34,974 nucleotides of DNA. Origin: Guillardia theta CCMP2712. Lineage: Eukaryota; Protista; Cryptophyta. A program made the position numbers and the translations under genes. The notes under the pieces were generated by a model. It worked only from the letters and a program-made list of their open reading frames with translations. It was not told the origin of the DNA and did no database searches. The DNA is taken from contig NW_005434423.1 in the NCBI RefSeq assembly GCF_000315625.1, forward strand, positions 1 to 34,974, given 5' to 3'. Shown piece by piece: positions 1 through 34,974 of the stretch (position 1 is its first letter; every line of letters starts with the position of its first letter).

Positions 1-1458
1 CGTGGAGGAGAGGTCGATGATGCGGATCGTGTGGTCGCGGCTGTCCGCAACGAGGAGGGACTGCCCGGCAAAGTCCACCGCCACCCCCGTAGGGTTGTAG
101 AACTTCGCCGCTGCCCCATTGACATTGTCGACCAGGCCGTTCGTCCCATCCCCCGCTAGCACGCTCAGGGTGGGAGTCGGGGTAGTCCAGTCCGCCTGCT
201 GGATCTGGTGGTCCGACTCGAAGGCGATGTACAGCTTTGGACCGAAGACATCCAATCCGAGCGGGTAGCCCGCCGTCTGGCTCGCAGATAGAGTCAAGAC
301 AAGGCTCACGGAGAGCGTCACCAGGTCGATCTTCCGCACATTATTCGTATCCACCACAATCAGCCAACCCATGTCGTCCGTGATCGCAAGGCCGCGGGGA
401 AGGTTGAAGAGGGTATCTCCCGCGTTGTTGTTGATAGTAGAGGTTGTAGCAGTAGTCGTGCAGGTGCCTGCAAAGACCACCACCGCCGCCGTCGTCAGGT
501 CAATACGTCGGATGCAGTTGTTGTTGTAGTCGGATACGTAGGCATATGACTCGGTCCAATCGAGAGTAACATCTACGGGTTTGTTGAATTGAGCAAGTAC
601 TCCAACCGCATCGTTATACCCGGCAGTCCCACTCCCTGCCAGCGTGCTCATGTAACCGCTGACAATATCCACCTTCCGTATCGCATGGTTCCCGCTGTCC
701 GCAACAAGGCAGTACACTAGCCCGCACATCAGATTATAAGGAGTGTTCAACTTGGAANNNNNNNNNNNNNNNNNNNNNNNNNNNNNNNNNNNNNNNNNNN
801 NNNNNNNNNNNNNNNNNNNNNNNNNNNNNNNNNNNNNNNNNNNNNNNNNNNNNNNNNCCGCAAATGCTGAGCTTCTGACAGTCGGAAACGCTCTGGGCAC
901 TCCACATCGGGGAAGTGTCCCCTTCAGGGCAAAGGCCATAGTCAGTCTCCGAGCCCCCAGCAAAGTAAAGCGCCGTCGGGTTCATCGCAGGCACACAGAA
1001 GTCCTCGGAAGCACTGCCGGTTTTGGCGATTTGTGTCGAAGTATAGCCAACCTCCTTGACGCGGAGGATGATGATGCCAGAACCGCCATTGCATCCATTT
1101 GAACCAAAACGTCCACCCCCACCCCCACCTCCTGTCCCCGACATACCATCGGCGCATTCGAATTGAGCAGGGTTAGCACCAGCACTAGTAGTATATCCTC
1201 CAATACCTCCACCCCCTCTCCCACCCAATCCATATGAATTGACACCACCCCCACTCCAAGAATGACCACCTCCCCCACCACCAACCCATCCAGAATCTCC
1301 GAATGAAGTAAACCCAAATACACCAGACACATCAATTCCAATGCCGCCATCACCAGCCTTCGATCCACAAACACCTGTCTTTCCATAACTTCCAGCCCCT
1401 CCACCACCACCATGAGCATGTGATGGAGCTACACCACATGCAATAACATCACCAGACC
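1..1458. repeat. Terminal direct repeat, copy 1 (matches 33518-34974); indicates circularity or tandem repetition
   Basis: 1-757 matches 33518-34274 and 858-1458 matches 34374-34974. The ORF track gives identical peptides at offset 33516 (942..1157 = 34458..34673). Confidence 0.97.
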
Positions 1459-4400
1459 CTCCATCATTGCCATACTGAAAAAAACCATCATACACCATAT
1501 TGTTTGAATTACCACCTGAACATCTACTTGCGTCACCCATAGATGCACCCCCTCCACTTCCACCATTTGCACCAGAACCACAGGTGAAAGGACTTCCATT
1601 CATTCTACCACCTCCAGCACCACCCCCCTTTGCAACATATGTAGCAAAAGTCGAATCATAACCATTGTTTCCAACGCACGGTGCTGAACCGCATATTCCC
1701 ACCCCAATACCTCCTTTACCTACATTTGAAACGAAAGTTCCTGAATTGAATGCAATATCAAGACCAAGAAGCACACCACCAGCACCACCCCCTGCTCCTC
1801 CACCTGTTGTTCCACCACCACCCCCAACAATCAAAATATCCACCACCATCGGCCTGCTGAACGTCACCGAATAAGTGGCCTGGTTTCCTGTCCCGTAGTA
1901 TGTGAGATAGTAGACGAAGCCCAGCGACCCAGCCCCGAGCTCCAGCACGGTGGGGATCGGGGAGATTATGAGCTGTGTCATCTTGCAGTCAGTACAGGGA
2001 GCGTAGCCGGTGGGGCACGACTGGCAGGTGCCCGTGGAGTCGGGGTACTGGTTGATCAGACAGGTCGAAGGTGTGTAGCAATCGTCGATGCTCCTTGCCT
2101 TGCCCGGGGCGCTGATTTTTCCAGAAGGGCAGCTCACACAGGTAGGCGTACTCAGAGTCCAATCGTAATACTGGTTCGCTTGGCAAGGATTTGTTTGGCA
2201 AAAGCACTCGTTGGTCGAGCCGGATGGGGAGATCTGGCCGTTGGTGCATTTCTGGCATGCAAAGATGTCTGCTAAACGCCATACATTCGCAACACCCGTA
2301 GAGAAATACAGCTTGGTAAAATCCTCAGAAAATGCAAGTGATTTTGGATTGGTTAAAGTGGTCGAAAGTGCATTGAAATTATCCACGTTTGTTGCAGTGC
2401 CGGTTCCTATCAACACGCTGACATACAGATCCGAAATGCGGATAGTCTTGATAAGATTGTTGCTGGCATCAGTCACAATCAAATAATTGTAACTAGGGGA
2501 AAACAAAAGGATTGCTGGATTACGGAATCTTACTGATGCTCCAAATCCATTAACATTCCCCGATGTGCCATCAAGACCAATAAAATTTGTGACTGCCAAT
2601 GTTGTAAGATCCAATCTCTTTATCACATGTCTGTCATGACAAGTGAAATAAGCATACGTTTCATCTTTATCAATGGCAATATTGTGAGCCGTGCAGGTTC
2701 CGGTAGAAATCGATGGGTTCGACTTCGTGTATGGAGAATTATAATCAATGGTCCGTATACCGTTAGATTCTGAAATGTATATCAGATTCTGCCTCTTACA
2801 AAATGCTGAACACAATGGATAATTGAATCTAGCATTCGTTCCTACTCCAGTGTTCGTTCCACTTGACCCAGACACACCAATGCGTTGTATTACTGTGGCT
2901 GTTTCTCCCCAAGATGGAATCGTCAAAATATCAACTACATGACCTGAATAATAACAGACAACCATCTTCTGATTATCGATAATACGAAGATCGATTGGCA
3001 GATTGGGCGTTGCGGACAGGAATATACTATTTGAGCTGGTATCACTTTCCCTTATCATCCGCAAATTTCCTGGGCTAGAATGTTCACACCAGTATAGTAT
3101 TCCATTAAAAACAAACGAACCATGCGGTTGAGCGGTGGTTGTACTGATACTCCTGATATTCCTTGCATATTTTACATCACCCAGACCATACAAGTTTTGT
3201 AAGCAAGGGCTTTTATCATCACATGTCCCACTGTTCGAACTCGCATACGCCGGAGACACAGTCCCCGCCGCACACGCCACGCACTGCCCACTCGTGGAAT
3301 CGTAGTAGGAGCCGGCCGCGCATGGAGTCTTACAATCACAGATCGAGAGGGAGTTGCCGGCAGAGTTCCCGGAGGGGCACGCCGCACACCCACCGTTGAC
3401 CGTGTCCTGGAAGGTGTCCACTGGGCAGCCGGCAGGGGCGGTGCAGTCCGAGGTGGAGTAGGCCTTACCCGCGGCGGATACAGTGCCGCTAGGACAGGAT
3501 TGGCAGGAGACTGTTGCGGTGTCGTAGTACTGGTTCGCGGTGCAGGGAGAGGTACAGCCGTAGAGATCGGAACCGGGTCTCGATGTGCCACCGCCGGGGC
3601 AATCCTGACACGTGTTGGAGCTGTCAAGGTACTGATTCGCAAGACAGCCCTGGCACCCATTCAGGAGATAGAAAGCGGCCTTCTTCCCTGCACTGGTCGT
3701 AGAGAACCACTGGGAGGCAGTAGCCCCGTTAGCCCCGGACTCGGCAAACGCCCCCTTCCCTGCGACGTTGAAATTGAAGTAACTCCATGCGTTATTCTTG
3801 TTGAGGTAGTCAATCTCGGAACTATACACATTGAAGTCAACCCAGGGCTTGTTCCCACTGTCAGACCAAGCATAGGCCATACTCGCAGAAACGCTAAAAG
3901 CCCCGTACGCATCCGTCACCCGCTCGTAGATCGCAAGCCAATTGTCGATGTCACAGTCATAGCACACCCTCGCAATAGCCGCGCTCCCCTGCGAGGCGAC
4001 CATCCAATTAAACAATGCGTCGAGGTCGTTGAGAGGCGATGAGATGGCAGAATTCAAGTTTGTGACTCCAGGGAAGCCACCGGATATGACCAGTTGCGGG
4101 TCAAAGTACCAGGTCTTGGCGTAAGTGCCGGGGGGACAGCCGGTGGGATAGTAGAGCGGGAAATAATGCTGGTCGACGTCGAACTGGGTGAAGCTATAGT
4201 TATAAATTCGGAAATCATCGATAGAGCCATCTGTTTTACCAGCAGCTGCCCAATTTGCCCTTGCAATATACCAATTTCTACTTGAAACAGTAGATATTGA
4301 CCCTATAACTTGCTGATTGCATCTGTCACATATAATCTCACCATTAAACCAAACAGTAAAATACGCATCCGATTGCACTGATATACAAATATGAAACCAT

Positions 4401-7400
4401 TGTGAATATATCACTGGAATATTGTTCATGATAGTCTTACCACTGTTACCATTGAATGCTTGTATCCAGACACCAACACCCGCTGCTTTCGTGTTTTGAA
4501 ACATTATATTACTGTTTGGTGCACCCCCGCCAAAATCAAAGAACCTAGAATCTGTTCCAGTTAAAGACGTCATGTAAGCCCATAAACTAAATGTTATTCC
4601 AGTAGCTTGTTGTATTCCTCCAATATCAATCGTATTCGGCACCGTCATATACTGCTGCGTTCCAGCCGCACTGAACTTCACAGCCCCATCCCCCCTCCTC
4701 CCCTGCCCCTGCGTCGCCCCGTAGTTCGTCGCATCGTTACCGTTTCCGGAACTATCCAGCCCGAGGTTGTTCGGGTCCTCGAACTGGTAGCTCACCAGCG
4801 GCGCGTACGGCTGGCAGCCATCCACGGAAGTCGCCCCGACGGAGTACGTCGTGGTCATGTGGGGGCAGCGGTCGCACCTCTTCATGCCGGATCCATCGTC
4901 GTAATGTCCATAATCGCAGCCCACACACTGGCTTGCCGTGAAGTTGGGTGTGTGGTAGTCGCCCTCGCAGTGGACGCAGTCTTTCAAGAGATAGAACAAC
5001 GCCTTCTTTGAAGATCCAACAGTGACGCCACTGGTGGAGAGAAATTGAGAACTTGCCGCCGCGGTAGGCCCACAATCCCTGAAGGCACCAGTGCTTCCGT
5101 CATAGTTGCAGTAACCCCAAGTGTTGACATCATTCAGATAGTCGTATTCAGACCCAAACAACTTAAAGTCCACCCCCATGCTGTTATCCGTAGCGCTCCA
5201 GGCATAGAGCATATTCGAAGACACGCTCCAAGTATCCTTGTACGTGATGCGCTTGTAAAAGATGAGCCAGTGTGTCAGGGCACAGTCATAACAAACCCTA
5301 ACGATAGTGCCATATCTGTTGCTCGCAACAAGGAGCTTAAAGGCATCGTCCCAGCTCGCCACCGGGGCACTCGCGGCGGCGTTCAGATCCGTCACGCCCG
5401 GGAAGCCCTTGCTGGCCACCAGCTCCGGGTAGTGGTACCCGAGCGGGTTCGGGTTGTAGCTGTCGCGGATGCAGCCGGTCGGGTAGAAGAGCGGATAGTA
5501 GTGCTGCTCGACGTCGAATTGGGTAAACGGAAAAGGATAAACGCGGAAATCATCAATGGCACCATACAATCGATAACTACCACCGTTTCCTATTCTCCAA
5601 ATTGGAGTTGTGACTGAACCCATTTTCCTTTTCGTTAATTTGTTGTGGACCAATTCACCATTAAACCAAATCATGTATGCATTTGCATTATCTGAACCAT
5701 CGTCGGGTAAAATTGACCAAACAATGTGATGCCAAGTACTATATGGGCGATTAACTTGAACGAATGAAGCACTTCCACTATCATAAGCCGCTATAGCAAA
5801 ATCTAAATTATTGCTTTGGATCAATAACCCATTCCCACCATCCCTGAAAAAAATGATATTTGAATAAAGATTGGTAGACGACGTTCTGTATAACCAGAAA
5901 GACAGCGTTATACCACCACTTTGCTGTATTGCACTGAAATCATGTATCCCATTCAGCACTAGATTTTGATTAGTAGAACTTCCATCAAAGTATGCAGCAC
6001 CGCTTCCTCTCCTTCCCATTCCAAACGTTACACCCCCTGTATTTGTTGCATGATCTCCATACCCCGAGCTATCATATCCCAAATCATTCGGATCATCAAA
6101 CTGAAGGCTGGTGAGCGGCTCATAAGCCGTGCATTGGCTTAAAGAAGTAGCCCCCACCGCAGCAGTCGTGGTCATGTGAGGGCAGCGGACGCAGGTCTGG
6201 GTGCCGGTGCCGTCATCAAAGTAACCAATTTCACACTTACATTCTGATACAGAATTTGAACCAATTGATCCTGTAGTATAGTCACCAAGACATGCCATAC
6301 ACCCAAAGTCAGGTGCTATATTTTCTAGAATTCGAAGATCGTCCCCAGTGTTCTGATAAGTCAAAAAAGCATACAAGACATTATCCATATCTTCACTACT
6401 TAATACCTGATCCCATATGTAAACCTGGGAGAAGGCAAAATTGCTAGATTGCGAAGAAATACCATCGTTGATACGCAAAGCATTGTTTCCAGATCCACCT
6501 GTAGCCAAACCTTTATCCCATATTGTAAAACCTTGCTTCAAGGAAGCCATCTTGACATTTGTTGGAATTACACCTCCGTTGGTAGCACATACACTTAACC
6601 AATCATCCGCATTATTCAGTCCCCAAAACAGACTTTCTGTATTGTAACTCGTACCAAGAAATACTATTCCTGCTTTACCATTTGTTCCACCAGCCGTGTC
6701 AATATGACCCAATGCAAAATTACTGTTTCCTTGCAAGACCCTGCTTCTAGACCCACCATTATATCGAATCATAGCACATATAGTGAAAGTACTTGGTATA
6801 CTGTTAGTAGGCCAATACATTTTTTCAGCAGTCGTCCCTTTGACGTAAGCAACAGATCCCACTGCACCGCTACCACTCTCAAATCCAGATGAAAAACCAC
6901 TGCCTACGACTGTTACTGATGCCCTACTACCAAGAGAATCAGGTATTCCCGAACCAGTCCAATCTTCAGCATGGTAAATTCCCCATGGTATTTTTGTATC
7001 TAAAAGATTACCCAACCTTTGATAAGAATTACTATAGATACTTTCGCCATTCGTAGAATATGTCCCCTTGTTGCATTGAGCCAAGTTTTCATCAGTTGAT
7101 AAAACACATTGTGTTGATGTTGTAGATCCTGTTGCTAAAGTTGTATATCCATCAGGACATCTAGTGCAACCATCTATTGTTATTTCTTGGAAAGACATGT
7201 AGTCAGCACTTGGTTTATTCCAGTAAATGAACACATATCTGCCTCTCAATGAACATCTCACTGTTAATTTTTCATTATTTGTAGAAAAGTCAAAATACCC
7301 AGTTCCACATTGTGCATTATTCAATGCCGTTGTTGAATCACCGATTAATATTCTTGAATAATCGTTCTGTTGTGGACAACAATCTACTCTGCTCCATAAA

Positions 7401-7756
7401 CTGACTTCCTGTACATCTTTCGAACTCCCGAGATCAATCCTAAACCAGAATGTTGTGTAAGTTGTTCCGACCGGGCTTGAGTGATATCCTGATGCAGTTG
7501 TATCATAATTATTATCAACAGCACCCGCAAAACTAAAACCAGTCCATGCTCCACCGCTCAGAGAAGCCAACGAACAACTACTGGGTGTTGTACCACAATC
7601 TTCTAACGACTCCATAAATCCTGATGCTCTATATGTCCCAATTGGACAAACACCAGGAACATGATTGTAGGACGTTTGCACTGAAACTGATAAAATTGAG
7701 ATGAATAAAAAACACAAATAAATTTCCACTTTTGCAATAGAGTTCCAATGCCTCAT
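1..7756 (-). CDS. Giant secreted Cys-rich repeat/multi-lectin protein, 5' part. Continues across the circle junction to 33233 (2679 aa), or to 32119 with a +1 shift (~3050 aa). Order: signal peptide, F-type lectin (FTP/F5-8C-like), ConA-like, 2x [LamG + unknown domain], NHL propeller, Gly-rich domain, second NHL propeller, all within GCC2_GCC3/ephrin-receptor-like Cys repeats
   Basis: ATG 7756 gives MRHWNSIAKVEIYLCFLFISILSVS (signal-like). Motifs: AVDNN..YHS..WFRIDLG..WSRVDCC (F-lectin); TLSFW..WHHIV..GAIDDFRVY (LamG, twice); GTNARFNYP, ASVRFRNP, AAKFYNPTGVAVD (NHL); DILIVGGGGG..GGSGIIILR (Gly-rich); recurring CxxCPxGxxSxxGSxSxxxC. Confidence 0.9.
758..857. other. Scaffold gap (100 N); true content is 99 bp
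   Basis: The same flanks in the second copy enclose 34275-34373 (99 nt). The 1-nt excess creates the false stop at 734 in the ORF track. Confidence 0.95.
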
Positions 7757-7841: not shown

Positions 7842-8690
7842 ATGGAGAGCCTTTACCGCGGCGAGGACAGCGACGGGACGGGCAGGTCGGAGCCAAAAAA
7901 TGGGGGGATGGGTAACGGGGGTAACGGTTCAGCGTTCGATGTCTCGTTGGTGGGGCGGGCCCGGCAGGGGTTCCGGATGCCTGTGAGTGGGGTTCTTGGT
8001 CATAGCTCCAAGCCGCCCACCGTCGCACCTACAAAGCCGATCACACAGAGACCAGTGACAAGCGGTCCGCGGATGGTGCCGCCGCCTGACAGGGTTATTA
8101 GTCCATCTCTAAAAGATTCAGACAGTGCCTACAGCCTTGCGACCGACGACGGGGCGAGCTCGAAGCACCCGGAGATCGTCAGGACGGGATACATACTATC
8201 CTTCACTATAGTCATCATGACAACCTGCATCCTAGAGAACCGGGGCAACGTCTTTGCGCTGAACCTTGCGATGCTGGCGGCGATGCCGCTGCTGAGTGCT
8301 ACCATGGTATTGCACAGCAGCTCTCAAGGGAGGATACGGTATTCGTTGCTTGCTATGGTGGGGGTCACGTGCCTCTCGGCATCGTCTATATCTATAATCC
8401 TCTCGGACACGACGCTCTCCCTCCTGCGGCACACACCCGGCCTGCTCTGTTTGACTCTATTCTTCTACGGGATGTCGACAGCCTGGCGGCGGATGATGTC
8501 GGCGGTCTGCTCGGTGCTCATATTGCTATGTATCATAACCTCCGCAATCGTCGACGCCAACTTCGAGAACAAGCAGACCATGGTTTTAGCGACGTGCCTG
8601 ATCTTCGGTCTCTTGTTCCTAGAATCCAACGTCGCGGTGACACCGCTGGCGTGTAAGAAAGAAGAAGGGGGGTGCATGGGGATAGTATGA
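7842..8690 (+). CDS. Hypothetical membrane protein: disordered Pro/Gly/Ser N-terminus plus ~6 transmembrane helices
   Basis: Six hydrophobic segments from YILSFTIVIMTTCIL to TMVLATCLIFGLLFL; AATAAA at 8694-8699. Start codon uncertain. Confidence 0.8.
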   Translation: MESLYRGEDSDGTGRSEPKNGGMGNGGNGSAFDVSLVGRARQGFRMPVSGVLGHSSKPPTVAPTKPITQRPVTSGPRMVPPPDRVISPSLKDSDSAYSLATDDGASSKHPEIVRTGYILSFTIVIMTTCILENRGNVFALNLAMLAAMPLLSATMVLHSSSQGRIRYSLLAMVGVTCLSASSISIILSDTTLSLLRHTPGLLCLTLFFYGMSTAWRRMMSAVCSVLILLCIITSAIVDANFENKQTMVLATCLIFGLLFLESNVAVTPLACKKEEGGCMGIV

Positions 8691-10510: not shown

Positions 10511-10553
10511 GATATTTAAAATTAGAAGAGAACCAGAGAGTCAAACATCAGGG

Positions 10554-11341: not shown

Positions 11342-11461
11342 ATGGACGCAGTCAAGGAACGCATCATCTACACAGTGGTATCCTACCTCTCGGTCGGTCT
11401 GTCGCTGAACCTAGCCCTGTACTGCCTCGTCAACAACTTCAGGTTCGATTGCGGGGTGTGA
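11342..11461 (+). CDS. Small 39-aa single-pass membrane protein (below ORF-track cutoff)
   Basis: MDAVKERIIYTVVSYLSVGLSLNLALYCLVNNFRFDCGV*; GC3-biased codons; AATAAA at 11464-11469 directly after the stop. Confidence 0.6.
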   Translation: MDAVKERIIYTVVSYLSVGLSLNLALYCLVNNFRFDCGV

Positions 11462-11530
11462 GAAATAAAAAAAATGGTGTTTTTTTTTCAATAAAAAAAA
11501 TTGAAATCATCACCCTCATACCCCGACCCA

Positions 11531-11897: not shown

Positions 11898-12107
11898 GGC
11901 TGTATAAGTAATTATAAACCCCCCGCTTCCCCGCTCAGACCACCTCTTTTTTATTTTTTTTTAAGGGAGGGTCCGTTTCCTCCTCCTCCTCCGTTGATAG
12001 CAAGGCGGGAAGGGCGGGGAGATCGGGCGGGGAGAACCACCACAGGCGTCCTGCATCGGCCATTATTTAAGCTTGCGCGGGTGGAGAGGGGGAAAGTAGT
12101 CGCGCGC

Positions 12108-22541: not shown

Positions 22542-22609
22542 GTTGTCTGGGGTGCGCTCCCGTTTCCCGCGCTTTTTGTAGCCCTCGCTAAAAAAAAGAA
22601 AAAAAATTA

Positions 22610-24064: not shown

Positions 24065-24104
24065 TCGGGTAACTTATCTACACGATTTATAAGAAAGGCT
24101 TTAT

Positions 24105-27089
24105 TCAGTTATTATTGGTGAGGATATAGAGCGTCTGCCCCGACCACAGGTCGATGAACACCACCCCAATCCTCAGCGAGAGCATGTCATGCACGGGAAG
24201 CCCGATAGAGTACACCAGAGCGTCGGTGAAGCCGAAAGAGAGGTAACCACCCACGAGGTTCAGCGCCCCGCACACCCCTGACCCCATCCTTCTCTGAAGG
24301 ACGCTGCGCAGCGTGTTGGAGGTGCCGAGCATGACATCACGGAAGGAGGTGCTCCCCGGCGTGTATCCAGAGGCGCAGGTGCAGAGCGCGGGGTCGACGG
24401 TCCCAGAGGGAGAGACGGTGTTGTTCGGGCAAGGGTTGCACACGCTCCCCATGAACATCTCGATGGTCCAAGGGGAGATCTGCCCGGATGGGTTCTGGCC
24501 AATCACCCGGAAGCACTGCACATCCACGAGGTTCATAGCAATGCTGTAGGACCACGCCCCGGAGCCGGACTGGGAGTATAGGTTGTAGAAACTCTCGCAT
24601 GTCTCGCAGTCCGTACATTCCGAACCCAGCACTTCCACAGTTTCAAAGGATGCGGCTGTGAAGCTCGAGGCATATAGAAGGATGTCCGAATGCGTCTCGA
24701 TCTCCACCGTACATATGGAGAAACGCGAGTCAGTACCCCCCTGTATGACGATCTTGGACCCCACTGCTATCGCCGTGGCCGTGCAAGAACCCGTGGCGGT
24801 CACAACCGGACCCCGCGTGCTGGCGTCCTGCTTAAAAGTGTTCGGGCTGCACGCAACGCAGCTCGAACCAGAGAGGTAGTACCCAGGCGCGCAGGCACAG
24901 CGGTCGGGGTCCGAGGCAGAAAAGGCCGCGCGGTTCCAGCGGTTCGGGCCGCAGGCGACGCAATCGTTCCCACTCTGGTACGTCCCCGCGGGGCACGGCT
25001 TGCACACCCCATCTTTGACCCGAATGTAGCCTTCGCAACACGGCGCCGCCTCCCCGGAGTTCCTTCCCAGCGGACAGGGCAGGCACGGCCCGCCGTCGTT
25101 CACGGGCTGGTACGTCCCCGACCCGCAGGGGGAGCAGGCCGCCACCCCGTTGGAGGTGAAGCCGAGAGGGCAGCTGAAGCAGAAGGACGCCCCCGTCATG
25201 AGCTGGTAGGTGCCGGCGGGGCAGTCGATGCAGCCCTCTGGGATGACGGTAGACACCGACGGGGTGATGGAGGTGAGGGAAGGGCCGTACTTCCCGGCGG
25301 GGCACGCAAGGCACCCGTACCAGTCACCACCAGGGCATGAAGGGCAGTACCCCGCCCCCGCCGCAATGTACAGCCCGGGCTTGCAAGCCAGAGTGCAGGT
25401 GGACCGGTCCGCCAGGAAGTTGGTCGAGGTGCAGCTCAGACACATGTCCTGGGAGTAGGTCTCCGGGCCGCAGCTCAGCTGGTAGTAGCCCGCCGGACAG
25501 CTCAGCTCCCCCTGATCGACGGAGACGGACTCGGCGGCGCAGTGCTCGCACGTGGTCCTCCCCGTGCTGAAGGTCCACGTGCCCGCCCAGCAGTCCAGGC
25601 ACACCGACTGGCCGACCTGCTGGTTGTACTTGCCTAGCGGGCACGGCAGGCAGCTCGCCTGGCCCGCGCTCCCCTGGTACGTCCCCACCCCGCACTGGTC
25701 GCAGATGACCTGCCCCGCGCTCGGCTGCCTCTGCCCGACCGCACAGTTGGTGCAGGTGCTGGCACCCGAGATGATCGAGATCTTGCCCACCGCACAGTTA
25801 TCGCAAAAAGACCGCCCCGTGTACTGCTGGAACTTACCGGGGGTGCAGGCCGTGCAAGTGGTCGGGCCACTGGTGATCAGGAAGCACTCCTTGGGAGAGC
25901 CAGGGCAGGGATCTCCGAACACGGAGTTAAGGCACTCTATTATCCCAAAGCGCGAATCGGATGTCACCGTCCTCACTATATTGCACGACGGGTTGCTGAC
26001 GCTCTGGTACCGAATAGTGTAGACGGTGTTTAGACTCAGGTACGCGCAAGCCCAGCCTTCCGATGCACACACATAACCCGACGACTCACTGTACTGCCCC
26101 GCCGGGCAGGTGATGCAGGACGACGCGCCCGCCGAAGAGTACGACCCGGCGGAGCACATGTTGCAGTACGACTGCCCGGCGCTCCCCTGATAGAATCCCG
26201 CAGTGCAGTCCGTGCAGACCGTCAGTCCCGTGCTCGCGGCGATCTTGCCCGCGGGGCAGCTGGTACAAGAGCCCAAGCCTTGCACACCAGTGTACGTCCC
26301 GACGCTGCACGAGGTGCACACGCTGGCCCCGGAGAGGCTGTACTTCCCCGCATCGCACAGCTTGTACGTGTCCTTGCTCGTCTCATCCTGGTACGATCCG
26401 GCGGGCACGTTGCTGCAGACCCTGTTCTCCGTCACGAGGTTCAGGGTGAAGACAAACCCTGGGGGAGGGTCAACGATCCTCACGCTGTCGGGCCTCAGCT
26501 CCTGGCAGCCGCTGGTCTCGTACGTGCCCGTGCCGCAGGTGGTGCATGCCGTGCACACGGGTGCCGTGCTGGGCCCGCAGTCCGAAAGGTATTTGTCCGA
26601 GGTGCAGGGGTAATTGAAGCAGCTTGCGCAGACCCGGTTTTGCGTGACAGCCCCCTGCTTACAACCCGTGGACTCGTATTGCGTCAGGTCGCACGTAGTG
26701 CAGGCAATGCAGCTCCCGATGTTGCCATTCCCGCACCCGCTCAGGTACGTGTCACCCGAGCACGACAGGCTCGAGCAACTCCCGCACACCGTGTTGGCCG
26801 TGTCGGTGCAGCTAGATGCCGTGTATTGCCCAGCGGAGCACGAGGTGCAGATTATACAAGAGGAAACCGCGCTAAACCAGAAAAATCCCGAGTTGCACTC
26901 ACAGGAAACTGAATAGATGCCCAATAAAACTTGCACTCGTGATATTTCAAAGGAGCCCGATGGGCAGCAAGTTTGGCCTACAGTACACACTACAGTGAAC
27001 CGATACCCCGCATGGCAGTGACCCACCAACAAACAGAGCAAAAAAACAGCGAAACATTCACGAACCCACACCATCCATTTCATCCGCAT
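24105..27089 (-). CDS. Secreted Cys-rich repeat protein (TNFR-like and GCC2_GCC3-like repeats) with small lectin-like insert; C-terminal domain appears truncated
   Basis: Signal peptide CFAVFLLCLLVGHCHA; CxxCxAGxYQ repeats; CLNSVFGDPCPGSPKEC insert; TATTAAA at 27111-27105; AATAAA overlaps the stop. Confidence 0.9.
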   Translation of the reverse strand: MRMKWMVWVRECFAVFLLCLLVGHCHAGYRFTVVCTVGQTCCPSGSFEISRVQVLLGIYSVSCECNSGFFWFSAVSSCIICTSCSAGQYTASSCTDTANTVCGSCSSLSCSGDTYLSGCGNGNIGSCIACTTCDLTQYESTGCKQGAVTQNRVCASCFNYPCTSDKYLSDCGPSTAPVCTACTTCGTGTYETSGCQELRPDSVRIVDPPPGFVFTLNLVTENRVCSNVPAGSYQDETSKDTYKLCDAGKYSLSGASVCTSCSVGTYTGVQGLGSCTSCPAGKIAASTGLTVCTDCTAGFYQGSAGQSYCNMCSAGSYSSAGASSCITCPAGQYSESSGYVCASEGWACAYLSLNTVYTIRYQSVSNPSCNIVRTVTSDSRFGIIECLNSVFGDPCPGSPKECFLITSGPTTCTACTPGKFQQYTGRSFCDNCAVGKISIISGASTCTNCAVGQRQPSAGQVICDQCGVGTYQGSAGQASCLPCPLGKYNQQVGQSVCLDCWAGTWTFSTGRTTCEHCAAESVSVDQGELSCPAGYYQLSCGPETYSQDMCLSCTSTNFLADRSTCTLACKPGLYIAAGAGYCPSCPGGDWYGCLACPAGKYGPSLTSITPSVSTVIPEGCIDCPAGTYQLMTGASFCFSCPLGFTSNGVAACSPCGSGTYQPVNDGGPCLPCPLGRNSGEAAPCCEGYIRVKDGVCKPCPAGTYQSGNDCVACGPNRWNRAAFSASDPDRCACAPGYYLSGSSCVACSPNTFKQDASTRGPVVTATGSCTATAIAVGSKIVIQGGTDSRFSICTVEIETHSDILLYASSFTAASFETVEVLGSECTDCETCESFYNLYSQSGSGAWSYSIAMNLVDVQCFRVIGQNPSGQISPWTIEMFMGSVCNPCPNNTVSPSGTVDPALCTCASGYTPGSTSFRDVMLGTSNTLRSVLQRRMGSGVCGALNLVGGYLSFGFTDALVYSIGLPVHDMLSLRIGVVFIDLWSGQTLYILTNNN

Positions 27090-27128
27090 ACCCGAAACAA
27101 TGTCTTTAATAACAGTCTATACCACCAA

Positions 27129-30100
27129 TCATGCCCTCAGCACCTCGCAATAGAAGCCATCCACGCACGGCACGCACTCTCCGTCGACATCGTAGAACCC
27201 CGGCTCACACGCGCAGCCCTGCGGCAGGCTCGTGTTCACCCTGGAGCGGCGCAGCAGCGCGCAATCGTAGCAAGTAGAGAGCCCCGCCCTGTCGTTGTAC
27301 GTGCCGGGTTCGCACTGCAGGCAGCGTTCTGCCCCAAAGGTGTCCGAGTAGGTCCCGGGCCCGCAGTCCGGGCATCCGCCGGCGTCGCCGAACTGCTTGC
27401 GCTTGCCCGGGATGCAGGCCAGGCAGAAGGTCGAACCGGGAGGGGAGAAGGTGCCGTAGGGGCAGGGGGTGCAGCTCGCAGAGAGACCGATAGAAAAGGT
27501 GTCGGCGGGGCACGGCGAAAGGCAGGCACCAGAGAGGTCGGCAGCGCAGGAGGTTGATCCGGTGAGGGAGGACTGGCCGTCGCTGCAGGGGATGCATCGG
27601 TCGGACTTTTCCGGAGAGTAAGTCCCCGAGTTGCAGATGTACACACAGGAGCCATTCCATGGCGGCACGATGTCGATCTCCGGGACAGAGGAGCAGCGCT
27701 TTGACCCATCGGTGTCGGTGATTGTATGGCTTGTTGGTGGGCAGTCCTCACAGGAAACTACACCGTCAATGTAACGAAGTCCACCCGGGCATTGCACGGG
27801 GATATCCTCCAGTGGTATGCAGTAACCCGCCGAAAAACCACCACAACCAGTGCGTATCGCCGTACCAGAGCACTCTGCACAGACCGTGCAGACGCCAGGA
27901 GAATCTGTGCTACACCCCTGGTTGTATGTACCCAGAGGACACGAGGTGCAGCTCTGGCAGGTGCCCGGACCAAACCTGCCGCATCCCACCCTGTATTCTT
28001 CAACACCGCATTCCACACACGCCTCGCAGGCGCTCTGGCAATCCCTCCTGAACTGGCCGGCCGGGCACTCCGCGCACAGCTCGCAAGTACCCGGCGACGC
28101 CCCCCCACACCCAACCCTGGTCTCGAACAGAGCGCAGGAGGTACAGGGAGCGCATACCCCGTCCTGGTTCCCCCCGCACCCCGCTGCGTACTCGCCAGAA
28201 GGGCACGACTTACAGGTGGTGCAAACCCCGGCCGAAATCCCACCACACCCATTCGCGTACTGGCCGGGAGAGCACCTGTCACAGCTCTCGCACGTCCCAG
28301 GGCTGGTGTAGGTGCAGCCGGCGCGGTAGGTACCAGAAGGGCAGGATCCACAGGGGAGACATTCTCCGATGCTCGAGCCCCGGCATCCGCTGAGGTACTG
28401 ACCGGAGGGGCACTGGTTGGAAGGACACGCCACACAAGCCCCTGAGCTGTCATCAGAGCACCCGCTCCTGTAGAAATCCGGAGCGCAGGGAGGGCATCTG
28501 TCGCAGCTACCTAAAACGACCCTGTTCTCAACTCCATATACGCCATCATCGGGATGATACCACGGTATTCCACTGGATTGCCAACCGCTGGCGCTTGGCA
28601 CCGAATAGTACACGCTCAATGTGCTGCCCCCATAGTTTTCACTGAATTGGATCCTGATGGGATAGTATGTTTTCGCATGCAAGTAGATGTGCCCATAACT
28701 TGACTGTGCTGCATGCACCCCTCCATTGTTCACCACCATCACGTATTCACCGTCGGATTTGATCCACAGGTAGCTCTCGTCGTCGCTGTTCGTGTAAAAA
28801 TCGTATCTGCCTCCATAGCTGCCAGTGTAGAGATAACCCTTGTATTCCACAGAGAACAGGTCTCCCGTTGTCCACAAGTTCAGTATCTCGGTGTGCACAC
28901 CAGAATCCACCACGGTGCCAGAATACGTGCCATATGACCCCGTCCATTTGTTCCAGGCAAGACCATAACTCACTCCGGAAAGTTTGAAGTAGTATCCTTC
29001 GCAGCACGCAGATCCTTCCGACGAGGTGGTCCCCGAGGGGCAGGGATAGCAGAAGGACTGCCTTGGAACAGCCTGGTAAGTCCCTGCAGGGCACTGCTGA
29101 CAGACCCCGGGCGACGTCAGGTAATTTCCGGCCGGGCAATCCGAGCAGAAGGTCTGGGTGACGCTGCTGGCAAAGGTACCAGTCGGGCAGTCCTCACACC
29201 AATAATAGTTATGCTCTGTGTTGTACCGACTGAACATTCCCGGAGGACAGGCAACACAGGTCTGCGACGAGTCGTTGAATCTCTGCCCCTGTGGGCACGT
29301 CCTGCACGCAAAGTCCCCCGAAAGAGAGAAGGATCCGGTAGGGCACGGCTTGCAGTAGTACATGCTGGATGACACCTCGTACTTCAAACACGCAGATGGG
29401 ACCACCGAACCTCCTGGCTCGTACGCCGCGTAATAACCCGGCCTGCACTGACACGCATAGAGCATCACACCGTTGAGGTTCTGTGCAAGGGTTTGGCTTT
29501 CCAGTGACAAGTCAACACAGAAGGACGTGAAGGCCTTCATGCACGAACCCTCCTCTACCCAACGGAACACGTTGTTACTCGATACTTTGTACAACCCAGC
29601 GTTGAAGAAATCCAATTGGTTTGCATGCATACTTACACAAGAGAGCGCTGTAGTGCCATAAGCAGTGAGATCAACATAGTTCGAAGATGTACAGAAAGAT
29701 CCCGCCGTGCATGTCCCAGAGACCGAGTATCTGTTATAAGTAAATCCCTGGACACAGGATGCAACACAGGACGTACCCACAACTATCTGCTCGGCAGTGC
29801 AAGAGGTACACACCGTTGAACCAGCCGCGGAGTAGCTATTCGGGGGGCAATCCAGGCAGACCTCGTTGGTCGTATCGGAGTACTTTCCGCCCGGACATTG
29901 CGTGCAGGTGCCAGTGACCGGGTTCGAGCCAGACGTCCACGTCCATTCGTAACCGGGACAGCAGATAGCAGACGTGTAAGAGTTCGACACTGGTCCCGAG
30001 CAGGTTAGACACAAAGAAGATCCCTGTGTCGGCTGGTAAGACCCCGCCCCGCAGGCAGTGCAGGAAGTCCTCCCTACGTTCGGCTGGTGCATGCCCCTGG

Positions 30101-32015
30101 GGCAGGGGAAGCAGGATGTGTATCGATTCTGAGCCGGTGTATACGTCCCTAGAGGGCACTGGCTGCAGGCGCTGTTGGAGCAGCTGCTCCGGAAGCTCCC
30201 CGCAGGGCAGAACTCCCAATCCGTGCACTTTCCTGGGAGGGACTCTGTGAAGAACTTCAAAGCCTTGTACTGGCACACCCCCGGGCTCAGCTCCTCACAG
30301 TGCCGGAGCTCGTCCCCCTGGGTGCACTGCGTGTAGTCGCACGCCCCACATACTCTCGCTTGCCCCGACCCACAGAGCGTATGCATGTACTGGTTCGCCG
30401 GGCACATCGAGCAAGGCTGGCAGAAACCGGCCGAGCCGCCGGTGCACCCCACGCGGTTGGAGTTGCTCGGGCAGTCGCCGCAGTCCGCACAGGAACCGGG
30501 CGACGATCCGCCGCAAGCCATCGAGATGAACTTGCCCTCGGCGCAGGAGAGCACGCCGCTGCACGATTCGCAGAAGGTCTGCCCAGTCAACTGCTGGTAC
30601 GTCCCGGAGGCGCAGGGGCTGCACTCCGTCGCCCCCGTCAGCGTCGTGTACTTGCCCGCGGGGCACGCCACGCACGGGGCCATGTCGCCGCCATCCAAGG
30701 CGAAGTAGCCCGGAAGGCAGCGGCAGGCGCTGATGTCGTTGATGTACTGCGAGTTGTTCAGGCACGCCATGCAGAACCCAGGGCTCAGTCCGCCGCATCC
30801 CAGCAGGAACTTTCCCCCGCAACCCGTCAGCTCGCCGGTTGGGCTCAGGCCCGTGCACCCCACGACGGGCTCGTCCACCTTGCAGTTGTCCACGCAGTCC
30901 GTGCAGCTCCCAGTCGAGGTCCCGGAGCAGCCCGTCCTATACCGGCCGGCGCCGCAGTCCAGAACGCAGTTGGCGCAGCTCCCCGGGTTCAGGCCGCTGC
31001 AGCCCGCCAGGTACTGCCCGTTCCCGCACCACCACGTCGGGCAGTCCACGCAGCTCCCCGTGCTCAGGCCCGAGCACCCCAGGCGGTACTTACCCGAGCC
31101 GCACGCCGAGAGCGTCGAGCACGCGGTGCAGCTTCCCCCGCTCGACCCCCCGCAACTCGTGACATACTGCCCATCCAAGCAAGACACACCAGGGCATTTC
31201 AAGCAATAGGATTGACCAGTGTTAGGCTGGTAGGTCCCCGAGGGGCAGCTCCTGCAGACCGTGGCACCCAGGCCTGGCGCATAGGTACCCGCCCCGCAAG
31301 CTGTGCAGGGCGCAAATCCGGCCAGGCCGTAGGTCGTCGGTGGATACTGTATGTCCACGGCATAGTTGGTATACGAGGATATCGCGCTTGCAGCATCAAA
31401 AGAGCTCCGATATCCCCTGTCGCATATGCAGTTGAACTGTCCCGCCTCCCACCCGAAATACAACACAGCATCGAAGCCAAGGGTGCTGAAGGTTCTGGTT
31501 GACCCTGTCGGGCATGACGTGCAAGTGGCATCGACGTTGCGAACATTTGAACAATCGTAGGCCTGCTGCGGTGAGCACGAGTAGTAGGACCTCTCCGGAC
31601 ATGATTCACAGAGGACAGTGGAGGATGTGCAGAGCAAAGGGATTTTAGACTCAATCAAGAAGCCCTGCTTGTCGTAAGACAACCACATGACACCCGGGCC
31701 CAGATCGGCACACGCGGTTCTGCAGTTGGCAGCCGTGGGGTTGAAGTTATTGACCAGTGTCCATTCCTTGCAACGCACCACCTTGTGGTTGTTCTGGTCC
31801 ACCGCATCGGTCCAGGACGATTGCATCAACCTACGCGACGTTGCAACCTCAAAGTTGTTGAACTGCAGCTTTTCACATACTGTGCAGGTGCCGTACGTCA
31901 GCGAGCAGTCGCTTGCCGTGGTAGACACCCATTGTGTTCGTAAGGCAGGCTGTATTACAAATTGAGAAACGCCCAACCCCGGCCAGAAAACCAGCAAAAC
32001 CAACCACCCCCACAT
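27129..32015 (-). CDS. Secreted Cys-rich repeat protein (1628 aa) with PA14/GLEYA-like domain
   Basis: Start reassigned to ATG 32015 (MWGWLVLLVFWPGLGVS), with CATTTAA at 32051-32045. RRLM motif; many CxxCxxGxYRxGCxGxSxGxC repeats; FSVEYKGY..FYTNSDDESYLWI..YYPIRIQF (PA14, ~28560-28970). Confidence 0.9.
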   Translation of the reverse strand: MWGWLVLLVFWPGLGVSQFVIQPALRTQWVSTTASDCSLTYGTCTVCEKLQFNNFEVATSRRLMQSSWTDAVDQNNHKVVRCKEWTLVNNFNPTAANCRTACADLGPGVMWLSYDKQGFLIESKIPLLCTSSTVLCESCPERSYYSCSPQQAYDCSNVRNVDATCTSCPTGSTRTFSTLGFDAVLYFGWEAGQFNCICDRGYRSSFDAASAISSYTNYAVDIQYPPTTYGLAGFAPCTACGAGTYAPGLGATVCRSCPSGTYQPNTGQSYCLKCPGVSCLDGQYVTSCGGSSGGSCTACSTLSACGSGKYRLGCSGLSTGSCVDCPTWWCGNGQYLAGCSGLNPGSCANCVLDCGAGRYRTGCSGTSTGSCTDCVDNCKVDEPVVGCTGLSPTGELTGCGGKFLLGCGGLSPGFCMACLNNSQYINDISACRCLPGYFALDGGDMAPCVACPAGKYTTLTGATECSPCASGTYQQLTGQTFCESCSGVLSCAEGKFISMACGGSSPGSCADCGDCPSNSNRVGCTGGSAGFCQPCSMCPANQYMHTLCGSGQARVCGACDYTQCTQGDELRHCEELSPGVCQYKALKFFTESLPGKCTDWEFCPAGSFRSSCSNSACSQCPLGTYTPAQNRYTSCFPCPRGMHQPNVGRTSCTACGAGSYQPTQGSSLCLTCSGPVSNSYTSAICCPGYEWTWTSGSNPVTGTCTQCPGGKYSDTTNEVCLDCPPNSYSAAGSTVCTSCTAEQIVVGTSCVASCVQGFTYNRYSVSGTCTAGSFCTSSNYVDLTAYGTTALSCVSMHANQLDFFNAGLYKVSSNNVFRWVEEGSCMKAFTSFCVDLSLESQTLAQNLNGVMLYACQCRPGYYAAYEPGGSVVPSACLKYEVSSSMYYCKPCPTGSFSLSGDFACRTCPQGQRFNDSSQTCVACPPGMFSRYNTEHNYYWCEDCPTGTFASSVTQTFCSDCPAGNYLTSPGVCQQCPAGTYQAVPRQSFCYPCPSGTTSSEGSACCEGYYFKLSGVSYGLAWNKWTGSYGTYSGTVVDSGVHTEILNLWTTGDLFSVEYKGYLYTGSYGGRYDFYTNSDDESYLWIKSDGEYVMVVNNGGVHAAQSSYGHIYLHAKTYYPIRIQFSENYGGSTLSVYYSVPSASGWQSSGIPWYHPDDGVYGVENRVVLGSCDRCPPCAPDFYRSGCSDDSSGACVACPSNQCPSGQYLSGCRGSSIGECLPCGSCPSGTYRAGCTYTSPGTCESCDRCSPGQYANGCGGISAGVCTTCKSCPSGEYAAGCGGNQDGVCAPCTSCALFETRVGCGGASPGTCELCAECPAGQFRRDCQSACEACVECGVEEYRVGCGRFGPGTCQSCTSCPLGTYNQGCSTDSPGVCTVCAECSGTAIRTGCGGFSAGYCIPLEDIPVQCPGGLRYIDGVVSCEDCPPTSHTITDTDGSKRCSSVPEIDIVPPWNGSCVYICNSGTYSPEKSDRCIPCSDGQSSLTGSTSCAADLSGACLSPCPADTFSIGLSASCTPCPYGTFSPPGSTFCLACIPGKRKQFGDAGGCPDCGPGTYSDTFGAERCLQCEPGTYNDRAGLSTCYDCALLRRSRVNTSLPQGCACEPGFYDVDGECVPCVDGFYCEVLRA

Positions 32016-32118
32016 CTCACTCACCCAGGCAAAAACACAAGCGCTTAAATGAAGGCATTGGGATCCATGGACACAAAAAAGGAAAGAAAACACACAGTTT
32101 TATTACCACAAGGCTACG

Positions 32119-33267
32119 CTAAGTACACACGGCAGGGCAGTAGAACCCGGCGGGGCAGGCCTGGCAGCTGGTCAGGCTCGTCCGGTAGTAGCCCGGGTTG
32201 CAGGAGCACTGTGCAATGGACGTCGCGCCGGCGAAGGACGTCGAGCTGGAAGGGCAGGTCTTGCACATCACCCCGTCGTTGGAGTAGGTCGCCGCGGGGC
32301 AGGTGGAGCACTGCCCGTAGTAGACCTGCGTGCCGGGGTTGCAGTTGCTGCAGCCGGATAGAGCCTGCATCGGGTCGTAGTAGTCTGTGACGCCGTTGCC
32401 GTCCGAGTCCATCTTGTGCGCGGAGACGTGCCACTTCCGCGAGAGGTACAGCTCGATGGCCGCTGCCTGCACCGCAGAGAGAGCGATATCGAAGACGATG
32501 ATCTCTTGGATAAAACCAACGAAGTTGTACGCCGACGCCAGATCGTTGGCCGCGCCGATCACCGCGTAGCCCGTCGAGCCCGTGTCCCCCGCGGAGTGGC
32601 CCAGGCTCACAGAGGGGTTGCTAAAGCCGTTGACCCGCAGCTCCGTCACGTCCTGCACCCCGTTGTACGTCGCCGTCGAGGAGAGCACGATCCGGTCGTG
32701 GGTCACAACGGTATCCAGGAGCGGATTGGTGTTGTACGTCGTGTCTGTCGTCCCCGGGGTGAGGTCGTCGCGCAGGTAGAAGGCCTCCGTCTTGCTTTTG
32801 AAGCCAAGCGTCTGCACGGGCGTCCCACCCTGTAGAAGCCCGCTCACCACGTGACCCTGCGTGGCAGTGTCGGCCCCGGTCTTCTGAAGGACGGCAAAGA
32901 TCGTTGCAGTCTTCGCCTGAAAGGGGCTGGTGCCGGTGGTCTTGTACCCGCAGGACCCGTCGAAGCGCACCCCGACCCTGGGGAGCAGCTCGCACTGGGT
33001 GGTGTAGCGCGCGCCGTTGGAGGATGTGAGTGCCACGGCATCCCGCCCGTTGCCACTCAGGTCCTTCCACGTGGGAAGCGGGCGGTAGTCCAGAATTGTC
33101 TGGTTGATGTCCGACACGGTGTTGATCCCGGAGTTGAACGTCCCGTCCATGTTGGACGCGTCCAGCCAGAGCTGCAGGTTGCCCTCGTACCCGAGCAGGT
33201 CCCCGGCCCTCTCCGTCAGGTGCCCGACGTAATCAAGCAGCTTCGCCCCACCCCCTAGGCTCGAACC
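32119..33267 (-). CDS. LamG/ConA-like domain plus Cys repeats; probable C-terminal continuation of the giant gene in the +1 frame
   Basis: LQLWLDAS..WKDLSGNGRDA..FVGFIQEIIVFD..IELYLSRKW; no signal peptide or promoter box of its own; AATAAA at 32104-32099. Confidence 0.8.
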   Translation of the reverse strand, partial: GSSLGGGAKLLDYVGHLTERAGDLLGYEGNLQLWLDASNMDGTFNSGINTVSDINQTILDYRPLPTWKDLSGNGRDAVALTSSNGARYTTQCELLPRVGVRFDGSCGYKTTGTSPFQAKTATIFAVLQKTGADTATQGHVVSGLLQGGTPVQTLGFKSKTEAFYLRDDLTPGTTDTTYNTNPLLDTVVTHDRIVLSSTATYNGVQDVTELRVNGFSNPSVSLGHSAGDTGSTGYAVIGAANDLASAYNFVGFIQEIIVFDIALSAVQAAAIELYLSRKWHVSAHKMDSDGNGVTDYYDPMQALSGCSNCNPGTQVYYGQCSTCPAATYSNDGVMCKTCPSSSTSFAGATSIAQCSCNPGYYRTSLTSCQACPAGFYCPAVCT

Positions 33268-34974
33268 TCGGCGCGCAGAACGCCGGCAGGCAATAGTCGG
33301 TCGAAGTCGAGCCATTGACGGAGAAGGTCCCGGAAGGGCAGGCCGTGCAGCTGTCCAGCCGGAACCGCCGGATCCCGCTGTTGCCCTGGTCTGAAACGAG
33401 CCCCCACCTCCCGTCCCTTGTCACCGAAACCCCAAACGGGAGCGACAGCGTCGCGGAGTTCGGGTCGATGCTGTCCTCCCCACCCGCCACCCCGGTACCC
33501 ACCAGCGTCGAGACCGCCGTGGAGGAGAGGTCGATGATGCGGATCGTGTGGTCGCGGCTGTCCGCAACGAGGAGGGACTGCCCGGCAAAGTCCACCGCCA
33601 CCCCCGTAGGGTTGTAGAACTTCGCCGCTGCCCCATTGACATTGTCGACCAGGCCGTTCGTCCCATCCCCCGCTAGCACGCTCAGGGTGGGAGTCGGGGT
33701 AGTCCAGTCCGCCTGCTGGATCTGGTGGTCCGACTCGAAGGCGATGTACAGCTTTGGACCGAAGACATCCAATCCGAGCGGGTAGCCCGCCGTCTGGCTC
33801 GCAGATAGAGTCAAGACAAGGCTCACGGAGAGCGTCACCAGGTCGATCTTCCGCACATTATTCGTATCCACCACAATCAGCCAACCCATGTCGTCCGTGA
33901 TCGCAAGGCCGCGGGGAAGGTTGAAGAGGGTATCTCCCGCGTTGTTGTTGATAGTAGAGGTTGTAGCAGTAGTCGTGCAGGTGCCTGCAAAGACCACCAC
34001 CGCCGCCGTCGTCAGGTCAATACGTCGGATGCAGTTGTTGTTGTAGTCGGATACGTAGGCATATGACTCGGTCCAATCGAGAGTAACATCTACGGGTTTG
34101 TTGAATTGAGCAAGTACTCCAACCGCATCGTTATACCCGGCAGTCCCACTCCCTGCCAGCGTGCTCATGTAACCGCTGACAATATCCACCTTCCGTATCG
34201 CATGGTTCCCGCTGTCCGCAACAAGGCAGTACACTAGCCCGCACATCAGATTATAAGGAGTGTTCAACTTGGAAACGCCAGGGTACCCATCCGTGAAGCC
34301 AACCCCGTTTCTCCCCGCGATGGCCTCCACGTCCCATGCCGCTGAAACCCCACCAGTCCCATAGTCCCCAGCCCCGCAAATGCTGAGCTTCTGACAGTCG
34401 GAAACGCTCTGGGCACTCCACATCGGGGAAGTGTCCCCTTCAGGGCAAAGGCCATAGTCAGTCTCCGAGCCCCCAGCAAAGTAAAGCGCCGTCGGGTTCA
34501 TCGCAGGCACACAGAAGTCCTCGGAAGCACTGCCGGTTTTGGCGATTTGTGTCGAAGTATAGCCAACCTCCTTGACGCGGAGGATGATGATGCCAGAACC
34601 GCCATTGCATCCATTTGAACCAAAACGTCCACCCCCACCCCCACCTCCTGTCCCCGACATACCATCGGCGCATTCGAATTGAGCAGGGTTAGCACCAGCA
34701 CTAGTAGTATATCCTCCAATACCTCCACCCCCTCTCCCACCCAATCCATATGAATTGACACCACCCCCACTCCAAGAATGACCACCTCCCCCACCACCAA
34801 CCCATCCAGAATCTCCGAATGAAGTAAACCCAAATACACCAGACACATCAATTCCAATGCCGCCATCACCAGCCTTCGATCCACAAACACCTGTCTTTCC
34901 ATAACTTCCAGCCCCTCCACCACCACCATGAGCATGTGATGGAGCTACACCACATGCAATAACATCACCAGACC
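33233..34974 (-). CDS. Continuation of the giant Cys-rich gene (end of Gly-rich domain, NHL propeller); not an independent gene
   Basis: The peptide is identical to the end of ORF 734..7834 up to CQKLSIC, then reads through the gap-filling 99 nt in frame. Confidence 0.9.
   Translation of the reverse strand, partial: SGDVIACGVAPSHAHGGGGGAGSYGKTGVCGSKAGDGGIGIDVSGVFGFTSFGDSGWVGGGGGGHSWSGGGVNSYGLGGRGGGGIGGYTTSAGANPAQFECADGMSGTGGGGGGGRFGSNGCNGGSGIIILRVKEVGYTSTQIAKTGSASEDFCVPAMNPTALYFAGGSETDYGLCPEGDTSPMWSAQSVSDCQKLSICGAGDYGTGGVSAAWDVEAIAGRNGVGFTDGYPGVSKLNTPYNLMCGLVYCLVADSGNHAIRKVDIVSGYMSTLAGSGTAGYNDAVGVLAQFNKPVDVTLDWTESYAYVSDYNNNCIRRIDLTTAAVVVFAGTCTTTATTSTINNNAGDTLFNLPRGLAITDDMGWLIVVDTNNVRKIDLVTLSVSLVLTLSASQTAGYPLGLDVFGPKLYIAFESDHQIQQADWTTPTPTLSVLAGDGTNGLVDNVNGAAAKFYNPTGVAVDFAGQSLLVADSRDHTIRIIDLSSTAVSTLVGTGVAGGEDSIDPNSATLSLPFGVSVTRDGRWGLVSDQGNSGIRRFRLDSCTACPSGTFSVNGSTSTDYCLPAFCAPRFEPRGWGEAA
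33518..34974. repeat. Terminal direct repeat, copy 2
   Basis: Matches 1-1458. Confidence 0.97.

Follow-up and report, generated by a model that had tools for sequence, protein, structure and literature searches.

The 34,974-bp stretch of Guillardia theta CCMP2712 DNA analysed here (contig NW_005434423.1, hereafter the window) contains a 33,516-bp unit that joins head to tail and is likely of mirusvirus origin, mirusviruses being plankton viruses related to herpesviruses. With a probability of roughly 0.55, we read it as endogenous mirusvirus DNA that comes out circular in assembly because its core is duplicated or the region is repeated in tandem. The initial annotation proposed a free circular episome or one segment of a multipartite genome, which is a possible alternative. 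Endogenous DNA is favoured because a sister copy of the core is present at equal depth, the unit occurs at about a single copy, and integrated-looking paralogues lie on large G. theta scaffolds.

Architecture of the unit and read support for the join

The unit comprises a 16-kb core of viral genes that includes a palindrome (about 7.9–24.1 kb), and a further 17 kb taken up by giant genes for Cys-rich surface proteins, referred to below as the cargo. As assembled, the window is a scaffold with one gap, in which 757 bp are followed by 100 N and then by 34,117 bp. A BLAST self-comparison showed that positions 1–757 equal 33518–34274 and positions 858–1458 equal 34374–34974, each at 100%, which sets the unit length between the repeat copies, and the N run at 758–857 (100 N) is matched by 99 real bases in the right copy. 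The end overlap of ~1.46 kb reported earlier was thus recovered together with the unit length, but not as a single clean repeat, since the N run interrupts it.

1–1458, unstranded: left copy of the terminal redundancy (757 bp, 100 N, 601 bp), 100% against 33518–34974 either side of the N run
33518–34974, unstranded: right copy of the terminal redundancy and head-to-tail join of the 33,516-bp unit (X2 contig, X11 depth)

Part of the window was found in 7 of 24 listed indexed public runs, five of them holding half or more, from two studies; no RNA run is listed among the indexed runs that hold it. Four runs were aligned to positions 15000–34974, namely X1 (2011), X2 (2021), X10 (RNA) and X11 (raw reads); the alignments cover this interval only, which begins to the right of the palindrome. 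X6 and the small shares in X7–X9 were set aside as evidence. An unbranched 13,168-nt contig from X2 covers 28221–34974 without substitutions and runs 6,412 letters further, so that its far end would fall at 7870 on the unit, near the point where the first gene of the sister copy converges. In X11, depth was 10.9 over the repeat versus 14.4 over the cargo. Because the contig is unbranched and the depth is not doubled, the unit does join head to tail and contains the repeat once. The reads therefore uphold the junction that was first proposed, while a free circle and a tandem or duplication cannot be told apart from them. A two-copy terminal repeat resembling a long terminal repeat was rejected on the same pair of depths.

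The other structural claims of the initial annotation also held. A single reading frame is open over the join and spans 2,679 codons, as calculated from the open reading frame (ORF) coordinates. Gene packing is dense and virus-like (94.6% coding over 17 ORF spans), with Cys-rich surface-type genes making up 50.8% of the unit. The motif TATTTAA occurs seven times against 1.11 expected, a count reached in none of 100 shuffles, and six of the seven sites lie at most 70 bp upstream of an ATG.

A sister core at equal depth and about one copy per genome

Depth in X11 rose to 24.9 over the core (15000–24323), compared with 14.4 over the cargo, and 482 of 953 reads carried other alleles at the 40 listed of 313 variant sites in 15000–24064. 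Contigs of the sister copy leave the window sequence exactly at 24064 into a different flank. This sister of the core is ~97–99% identical and stands at equal depth, and the same two haplotypes are present in X1 (2011) and X2 (2021). The raised depth, the half share of other letters and the contigs diverging at 24064 together place the sister core at a ratio of about 1:1. Since the two cores differ by a few percent, the unit is not a fresh deletion product. Dividing the 1,003.6 Mb read by an assumed host genome size of 87.1 Mb (PMC12220804) gives 11.5x, close to the cargo depth. In the RNA run X10, which may come from another strain, 40 of 19.8 million records aligned.

Paralogues in the host assembly

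The nearest named records are G. theta genes, one of them 100% identical over 430 aligned columns, and point to a Guillardia-type cryptophyte as the likely host. Two further neighbours above 90% lie in the same order on a 176,329-bp G. theta scaffold, and on this 176-kb scaffold the sister core is syntenic on either side of the palindrome (EKX34806, 34808, 34816). Older G. theta copies occur on scaffolds of 655, 573, 260, 187 and 67 kb, two RtcB-like G. theta paralogues are truncated, and a replacement at 22585–22648 agrees with the N-terminal difference of the G. theta protein. When 18 window ORFs were looked up, three of the proteins were found letter for letter on one 63,921-bp contig, and a fourth was present there as a shorter gene model; the record from which the window derives may therefore exceed it in length. 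Subtracting the lengths of the two scaffold pieces from 63,921 leaves 29,047, and the 757-bp piece would lie nearly one unit upstream if the 100 N stood for a longer gap; speculatively, such a gap would hint at a tandem or concatemer.

The equal-depth sister, the approximate single copy per genome and the 63,921-bp contig, with reads covering 15000–34974, do not bear out the original description of the unit as complete and as a circular episome. Mirusvirus DNA in G. theta is already known: in the survey of PMC10827195, its assembly was scored positive for the major capsid protein (MCP), Triplex2 and protease, and portal and Triplex1 were scored negative. In a literature search, with subscription papers outside its scope, none of the records listed dealt with this unit or described a mirusvirus of sub-genomic, satellite, defective, multipartite or segmented type; PMC12747079 and PMC5294986 likewise add nothing on the unit or on sub-genomic mirusviruses.

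Evidence for the mirusvirus lineage

The lineage of the unit was assigned from one gene at the edge of the core.

22610–24064, + strand: RtcB-fold protein, right edge of the shared core (fold match, neighbour families)

The model of this ORF (pLDDT 87.9) matches RtcB RNA ligases (Foldseek E 8e-7; VIA Z 21.2, rmsd 3.8, 309 aligned), and 93 homologues were identified among 3,253 candidates. In the alignment columns, the catalytic Cys and His of RtcB appear to be replaced in this family. The family is widespread and may represent a derivative that no longer acts as a ligase, with a structural or RNA-binding role, and that is conserved across mirusviruses.

Metagenome loci of the family were collected by pattern search (240 of 389 matches confirmed), and the best 80 were fetched, many of which are too short to show neighbours. 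One neighbouring family was present in 49 of the 80 loci and a second in 38, with at least one of them in 61. The first, modelled from 19 of 68 ORFs, folds as a portal (pLDDT 61.6): it has 36 PDB matches at E<=0.001, and all 30 among the matches listed are portal or neck chains, with a weak portal match in PHROGs as well (E 0.19). The second was identified as Snf7 in both members tested. Sequence searches of the PDB missed RtcB and portal alike, and only the folds revealed them. Snf7 is a mirusvirus core gene not found in nucleocytoviruses according to PMC12768974. The supplement of that paper records RtcB-fold genes that share both BFVD hits of the window ORF; they come from three structurally annotated genomes and fall in orthogroups of 384, 196 and 225 genomes.

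The ORF at 22610–24064 belongs to a family linked with a mirusvirus-type portal and Snf7. Because this family sits beside portal and Snf7, and such genes are recorded in mirusviruses, the unit is likely of mirusvirus origin, which agrees with the best guess of the initial annotation. The family tree comprised 37 rows, with 20 of the 80 loci, and was rooted at the midpoint. Among the 80 loci, the Cys-rich window genes alone have relatives (two loci, tblastn), and the other core ORFs of the window showed no clear relative there. The viral_contigs set contained no relative of the RtcB-like ORF, of its alignment, or of the 225-aa and 275-aa core ORFs described below.

Depth was also raised across 22992–24323, where loose ends lie at 23700 and 23920 and 5 letters are inserted at 23829; this pattern suggests that the RtcB-like gene has a third partial copy, which is broken.

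Virion and replication genes

Family searches (18 ORFs against Pfam, 14 against PHROGs and NCBIfam) gave no match to PolB, helicase/primase, Rep, integrase, packaging ATPase or capsid, in agreement with the motif survey of the initial annotation and with its view of the unit as non-autonomous and unlike virophages or Polinton-like viruses in gene content. The same general models, none of them mirusvirus-specific, yielded no terminase, triplex 1 or 2, maturation protease or HK97-type major capsid protein, and no partition or replication gene was recognised with them. A double-jelly-roll capsid protein had no family match either (one window ORF was folded). The sole ORF of capsid size, of 1,455 aa, has a methyltransferase-like domain, and a hidden Markov model of the portal-fold neighbour family matched none of 19 window ORFs at E<=0.05.

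The absent polymerase is unsurprising because two major mirusvirus orders lack PolB (PMC12768974), and the lack of any capsid, portal, polymerase or integrase match fits a fragment. Set against a mean mirusvirus genome of 265 kb across the phylum (PMC12768974), a length of 33,516 bp files the unit as mirusvirus-derived DNA, not as a mirusvirus genome. Two classifications were rejected: a complete mirusvirus genome, on the length of the unit and the missing portal match, and a Polinton-like virus or virophage, on the lack of Pfam, PHROGs or NCBIfam matches to pPolB or helicase, packaging ATPase, and rve or tyrosine integrase.

Endogenous region versus free replicon

As endogenous DNA, the unit would lie within a larger molecule in the order flank–core–cargo–core–flank, or as a short tandem. 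Host nuclear enzymes would copy it passively at about one copy per genome, and it would be largely unexpressed. If the two cores recombined, precisely the circle seen in the window would be released, so that a single element would exist in an integrated and a circular state; for its capsid and packaging it would depend on mirusvirus genes elsewhere in the host. With flank, core, cargo, core and flank on one molecule, the 1:1 ratio becomes automatic, and the arrangement can collapse in assembly into a circle plus one core.

Several points weigh against an endogenous origin. The scaffold break lies in unique cargo and not in the shared core, so the duplicated-core model needs a mis-join; the dense variants of the core (313 sites in 15000–24064) should allow an assembler to phase the two copies; no host flank on the window haplotype was seen among 12 of 25 loose ends; and the ORFs are intact, unlike those of decayed insertions. 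The supporting data carry margins of their own, in that ChIP depth is uneven, the 40 variant sites were those with the best support among 313, gap padding or a second lap may account for the 63,921-bp length, and X10 possibly represents another strain.

The strongest competitor, which we consider about half as probable, is a true low-copy circular episome, namely a mirusvirus subgenome (satellite, defective genome or segment) that depends on a helper. In that case, the palindrome would serve as the origin, host nuclear replication would copy the circle, a helper mirusvirus would package it, and the surface-protein genes would be its payload. The clean head-to-tail unit with an intact gene over the join fits such a circle, as does the 13,168-nt contig running through the repeat to 7870, within about 60 bp of the point where the sister joins. 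The scaffold break in unique sequence, the single palindrome per unit, the intact ORFs and the dense variants between the two cores point the same way, and mirusvirus episomes alongside integrants are described in Aurantiochytrium (PMC12606086). However, the depth of the unit matches the sister copy and is near one per genome in runs made years apart, whereas AurliV-1 stands at about 9x; a free circle must match the copy number of the sister by other means, it carries no recognised partition or replication gene, and the 63,921-bp record is longer than the circle.

A linear element with terminal inverted repeats, in which the palindrome arms are the genome ends and the assembler joined them at the TA-rich centre, appears unlikely. 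The arms do resemble imperfect terminal repeats ending in TA-rich sequence, and the read alignments do not reach this region, but the contig passes the palindrome without a gap, Pfam searches found no integrase, transposase or protein-primed polymerase, and on one 176-kb scaffold the gene order of the sister core is conserved to the left and right of the palindrome.

We regard nucleocytovirus DNA or a host gene cluster of non-mirusvirus origin as the least probable source: the cap-methyltransferase-like domain has nucleocytoviral clusters as its closest Atlas matches and the RtcB-like clade of the window includes no locus long enough for a portal (L002 is 1.8 kb), both of which count against the mirusvirus assignment, and Cys-rich repeat proteins occur in protists as well, but the portal and Snf7 neighbours of the RtcB-like family, the virus-like gene density, the TATTTAA motif, and the assignment of ephrin-receptor-like genes to an orthogroup of 524 mirusvirus genomes (PMC12768974) speak for a mirusvirus.

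Relation to known systems

The closest counterparts are the cryptophyte endogenous mirusvirus regions of MCP clade E03 described by Zhao et al. (PMC10827195), which share the host group and have near-identical G. theta genes. The scaffolds of that survey bear an MCP, whereas the present unit lacks an MCP match and has a head-to-tail join. In Aurantiochytrium limacinum, the AurliV-1 episome and the AurliV-2 integrant (PMC12606086; bioRxiv 2023.06.15.545109) are comparable as long-term mirusvirus DNA in a protist, with related forms side by side at a stable ratio over years. These are about 300 kb in size, with a virion module and PolB, in contrast to 33.5 kb and no recognised virion module here, and AurliV-1 is expressed and stands at about 9x chromosomal depth, while our unit is near 1x. 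The nuclear, PolB-less Styxvirales and Okeanovirales (PMC12768974) are alike in having no DNA or RNA polymerase and in carrying RtcB-fold and ephrin-receptor-like genes; unlike the unit, they possess a virion module, and the phylum mean is about 265 kb.

If the free circle were true, it would be the first mirusvirus replicon of satellite, defective or segment type, maintained over 15 years in a cultured cryptophyte at roughly a single copy per genome and a tenth the size of known mirusvirus episomes. It would offer a minimal culturable system for the replication and segregation of polymerase-less mirusviruses in the nucleus, with the palindrome as a ready origin candidate. If the unit is integrated, a cultured alga carries a mirusvirus insertion that is recent and intact and has near-identical relatives in environmental records, and some “algal” Cys-rich surface genes would be viral; it would then be a new locus of a known phenomenon.

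Palindrome

11528–11899, unstranded: imperfect palindrome with G/C runs, 3–4 TTTAACGG repeats per arm and a TA-rich centre (BLAST E 1e-18)

The palindrome has 27-nt perfect arms and, as stated in the initial annotation, is real and the sole one in the unit. Its sequence makes it a candidate origin or a junction of genome ends. Herpes simplex defective genomes and amplicons consist of head-to-tail units with palindromic oriS or oriL around an AT-rich centre and depend on a helper. The layout of the window palindrome, with inverted repeats around an AT-rich centre, resembles such herpes-type origins; the head-to-tail unit would extend the likeness to amplicons. The only match to the palindrome motif in viral_contigs was an unrelated simple repeat, and Rfam gave no match in the window. 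Just ahead of the palindrome lies a 39-aa ORF with one hydrophobic helix (11342–11461), followed by AATAAA.

Surface-protein cargo

858–7756, − strand: giant join-crossing Cys-rich surface-type gene, 5′ part (Pfam, ORF calls, GC3)
24105–27089, − strand: 994-aa Cys-rich surface-type protein with ephrin-receptor-like and TNFR repeats (Pfam)
27129–32015, − strand: 1,628-aa Cys-rich surface-type protein with a PA14 domain (Pfam)
32119–34373, − strand: 3′ part of the giant gene, with an NHL propeller, then a LamG-like frame at 32119–33315 (Pfam)

The 5′ part of the giant gene encodes a signal-like N-terminus, F5/8, two LamG domains, ephrin-receptor-like repeats and a Gly-rich domain. Contigs from X1 and X2 carry additional letters at 33245/33250; the frame break near 33245–33250 is likely an assembly error, and the giant gene would then encode about 3,050 aa. 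Its GC content at third codon positions (GC3) forms a mosaic from 0.16 to 0.94 in 50-codon blocks, and the LamG blocks are internally duplicated, a composition pointing to repeated domain swapping; GC3 revealed no single fusion point in this gene.

Other core genes

7842–8690, + strand: 282-aa membrane-type protein, left edge of the core common to the sister copy (protein cluster)
8738–9574, − strand: 278-aa basic orphan (singleton 90% cluster, on the 63,921-bp contig)
9683–10510, + strand: 275-aa multi-pass membrane-type protein (close to GUITHDRAFT_146921)
10485–11258, + strand: AT-rich orphan (ORF call, GC3)
12108–12851, + strand: 247-aa low-complexity orphan (ORF call, Pfam)
12889–13521, + strand: 210-aa protein (phrog_1128, E 5.5e-7)
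13608–14072, − strand: 154-aa CxxC...HxxxH protein (conserved family)
14187–18554, + strand: 1,455-aa protein, trimethylguanosine-synthase-like (cap methyltransferase) domain ahead of a long helical region (Atlas, NCBIfam)
18643–20801, unstranded: convergent AT-rich cassette of a 459-aa ORF (+) and a 252-aa ORF (−) (GC3 0.41 and 0.60)
20882–21559, − strand: 225-aa coiled-coil protein (cryptophyte homologues)
21608–22541, − strand: gene in two overlapping frames, by frameshift, intron or assembly error (gene-model match)

The 282-aa protein falls in an over-90% cluster with GUITHDRAFT_146919 and has a different N-terminus, and an Atlas search with the adjacent 278-aa orphan gave no usable match. 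The 275-aa protein differs from GUITHDRAFT_146921 at 4 of 275 residues and has over-90% relatives in ENA, JGI and Logan records, which suggests a close free-living virus population. The AT-rich orphan at 10485–11258 matched no family above cut-off in Pfam, PHROGs or NCBIfam, and its start likely falls after the TATTTAA at 10513.

The 210-aa protein is likely a permuted papain-like peptidase, a class of which we take its His-before-Cys motif to be a mark. The 154-aa protein has 85 representatives at E<=0.001, including a G. theta paralogue, with C19, C22, H76 and H80 conserved among 57 aligned; Pfam and PDB searches assigned it to no family, and it is likely zinc-binding and a candidate DNA-binding protein. 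For the 1,455-aa ORF, Atlas features (0.95) and Methyltransf_15 clusters give a lead, and there is a weak match to an Erm methyltransferase (E 0.013); residues 200–700, searched among proteins of 800–2,547 aa, had no match.

The cassette at 18643–20801 is absent from one related form, as contigs from X1 and X2 join 18554 directly to 20880. Its 459-aa ORF (18643–20022) contains R, STS and ExE motifs, presumably the R-S-E set of ADP-ribosyltransferases; Pfam and PDB searches with it gave no match, and PDB and phage searches with the 459-aa and 210-aa ORFs returned nothing informative. The two-frame gene at 21608–22541 is the one candidate for an intron, with RNA depth too low for joints, and both of its frames match a single G. 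theta gene model (P0099) across a purine-rich repeat. The neighbouring 225-aa coiled-coil protein has 16 homologues, including proteins of Hanusia phi and G. theta.

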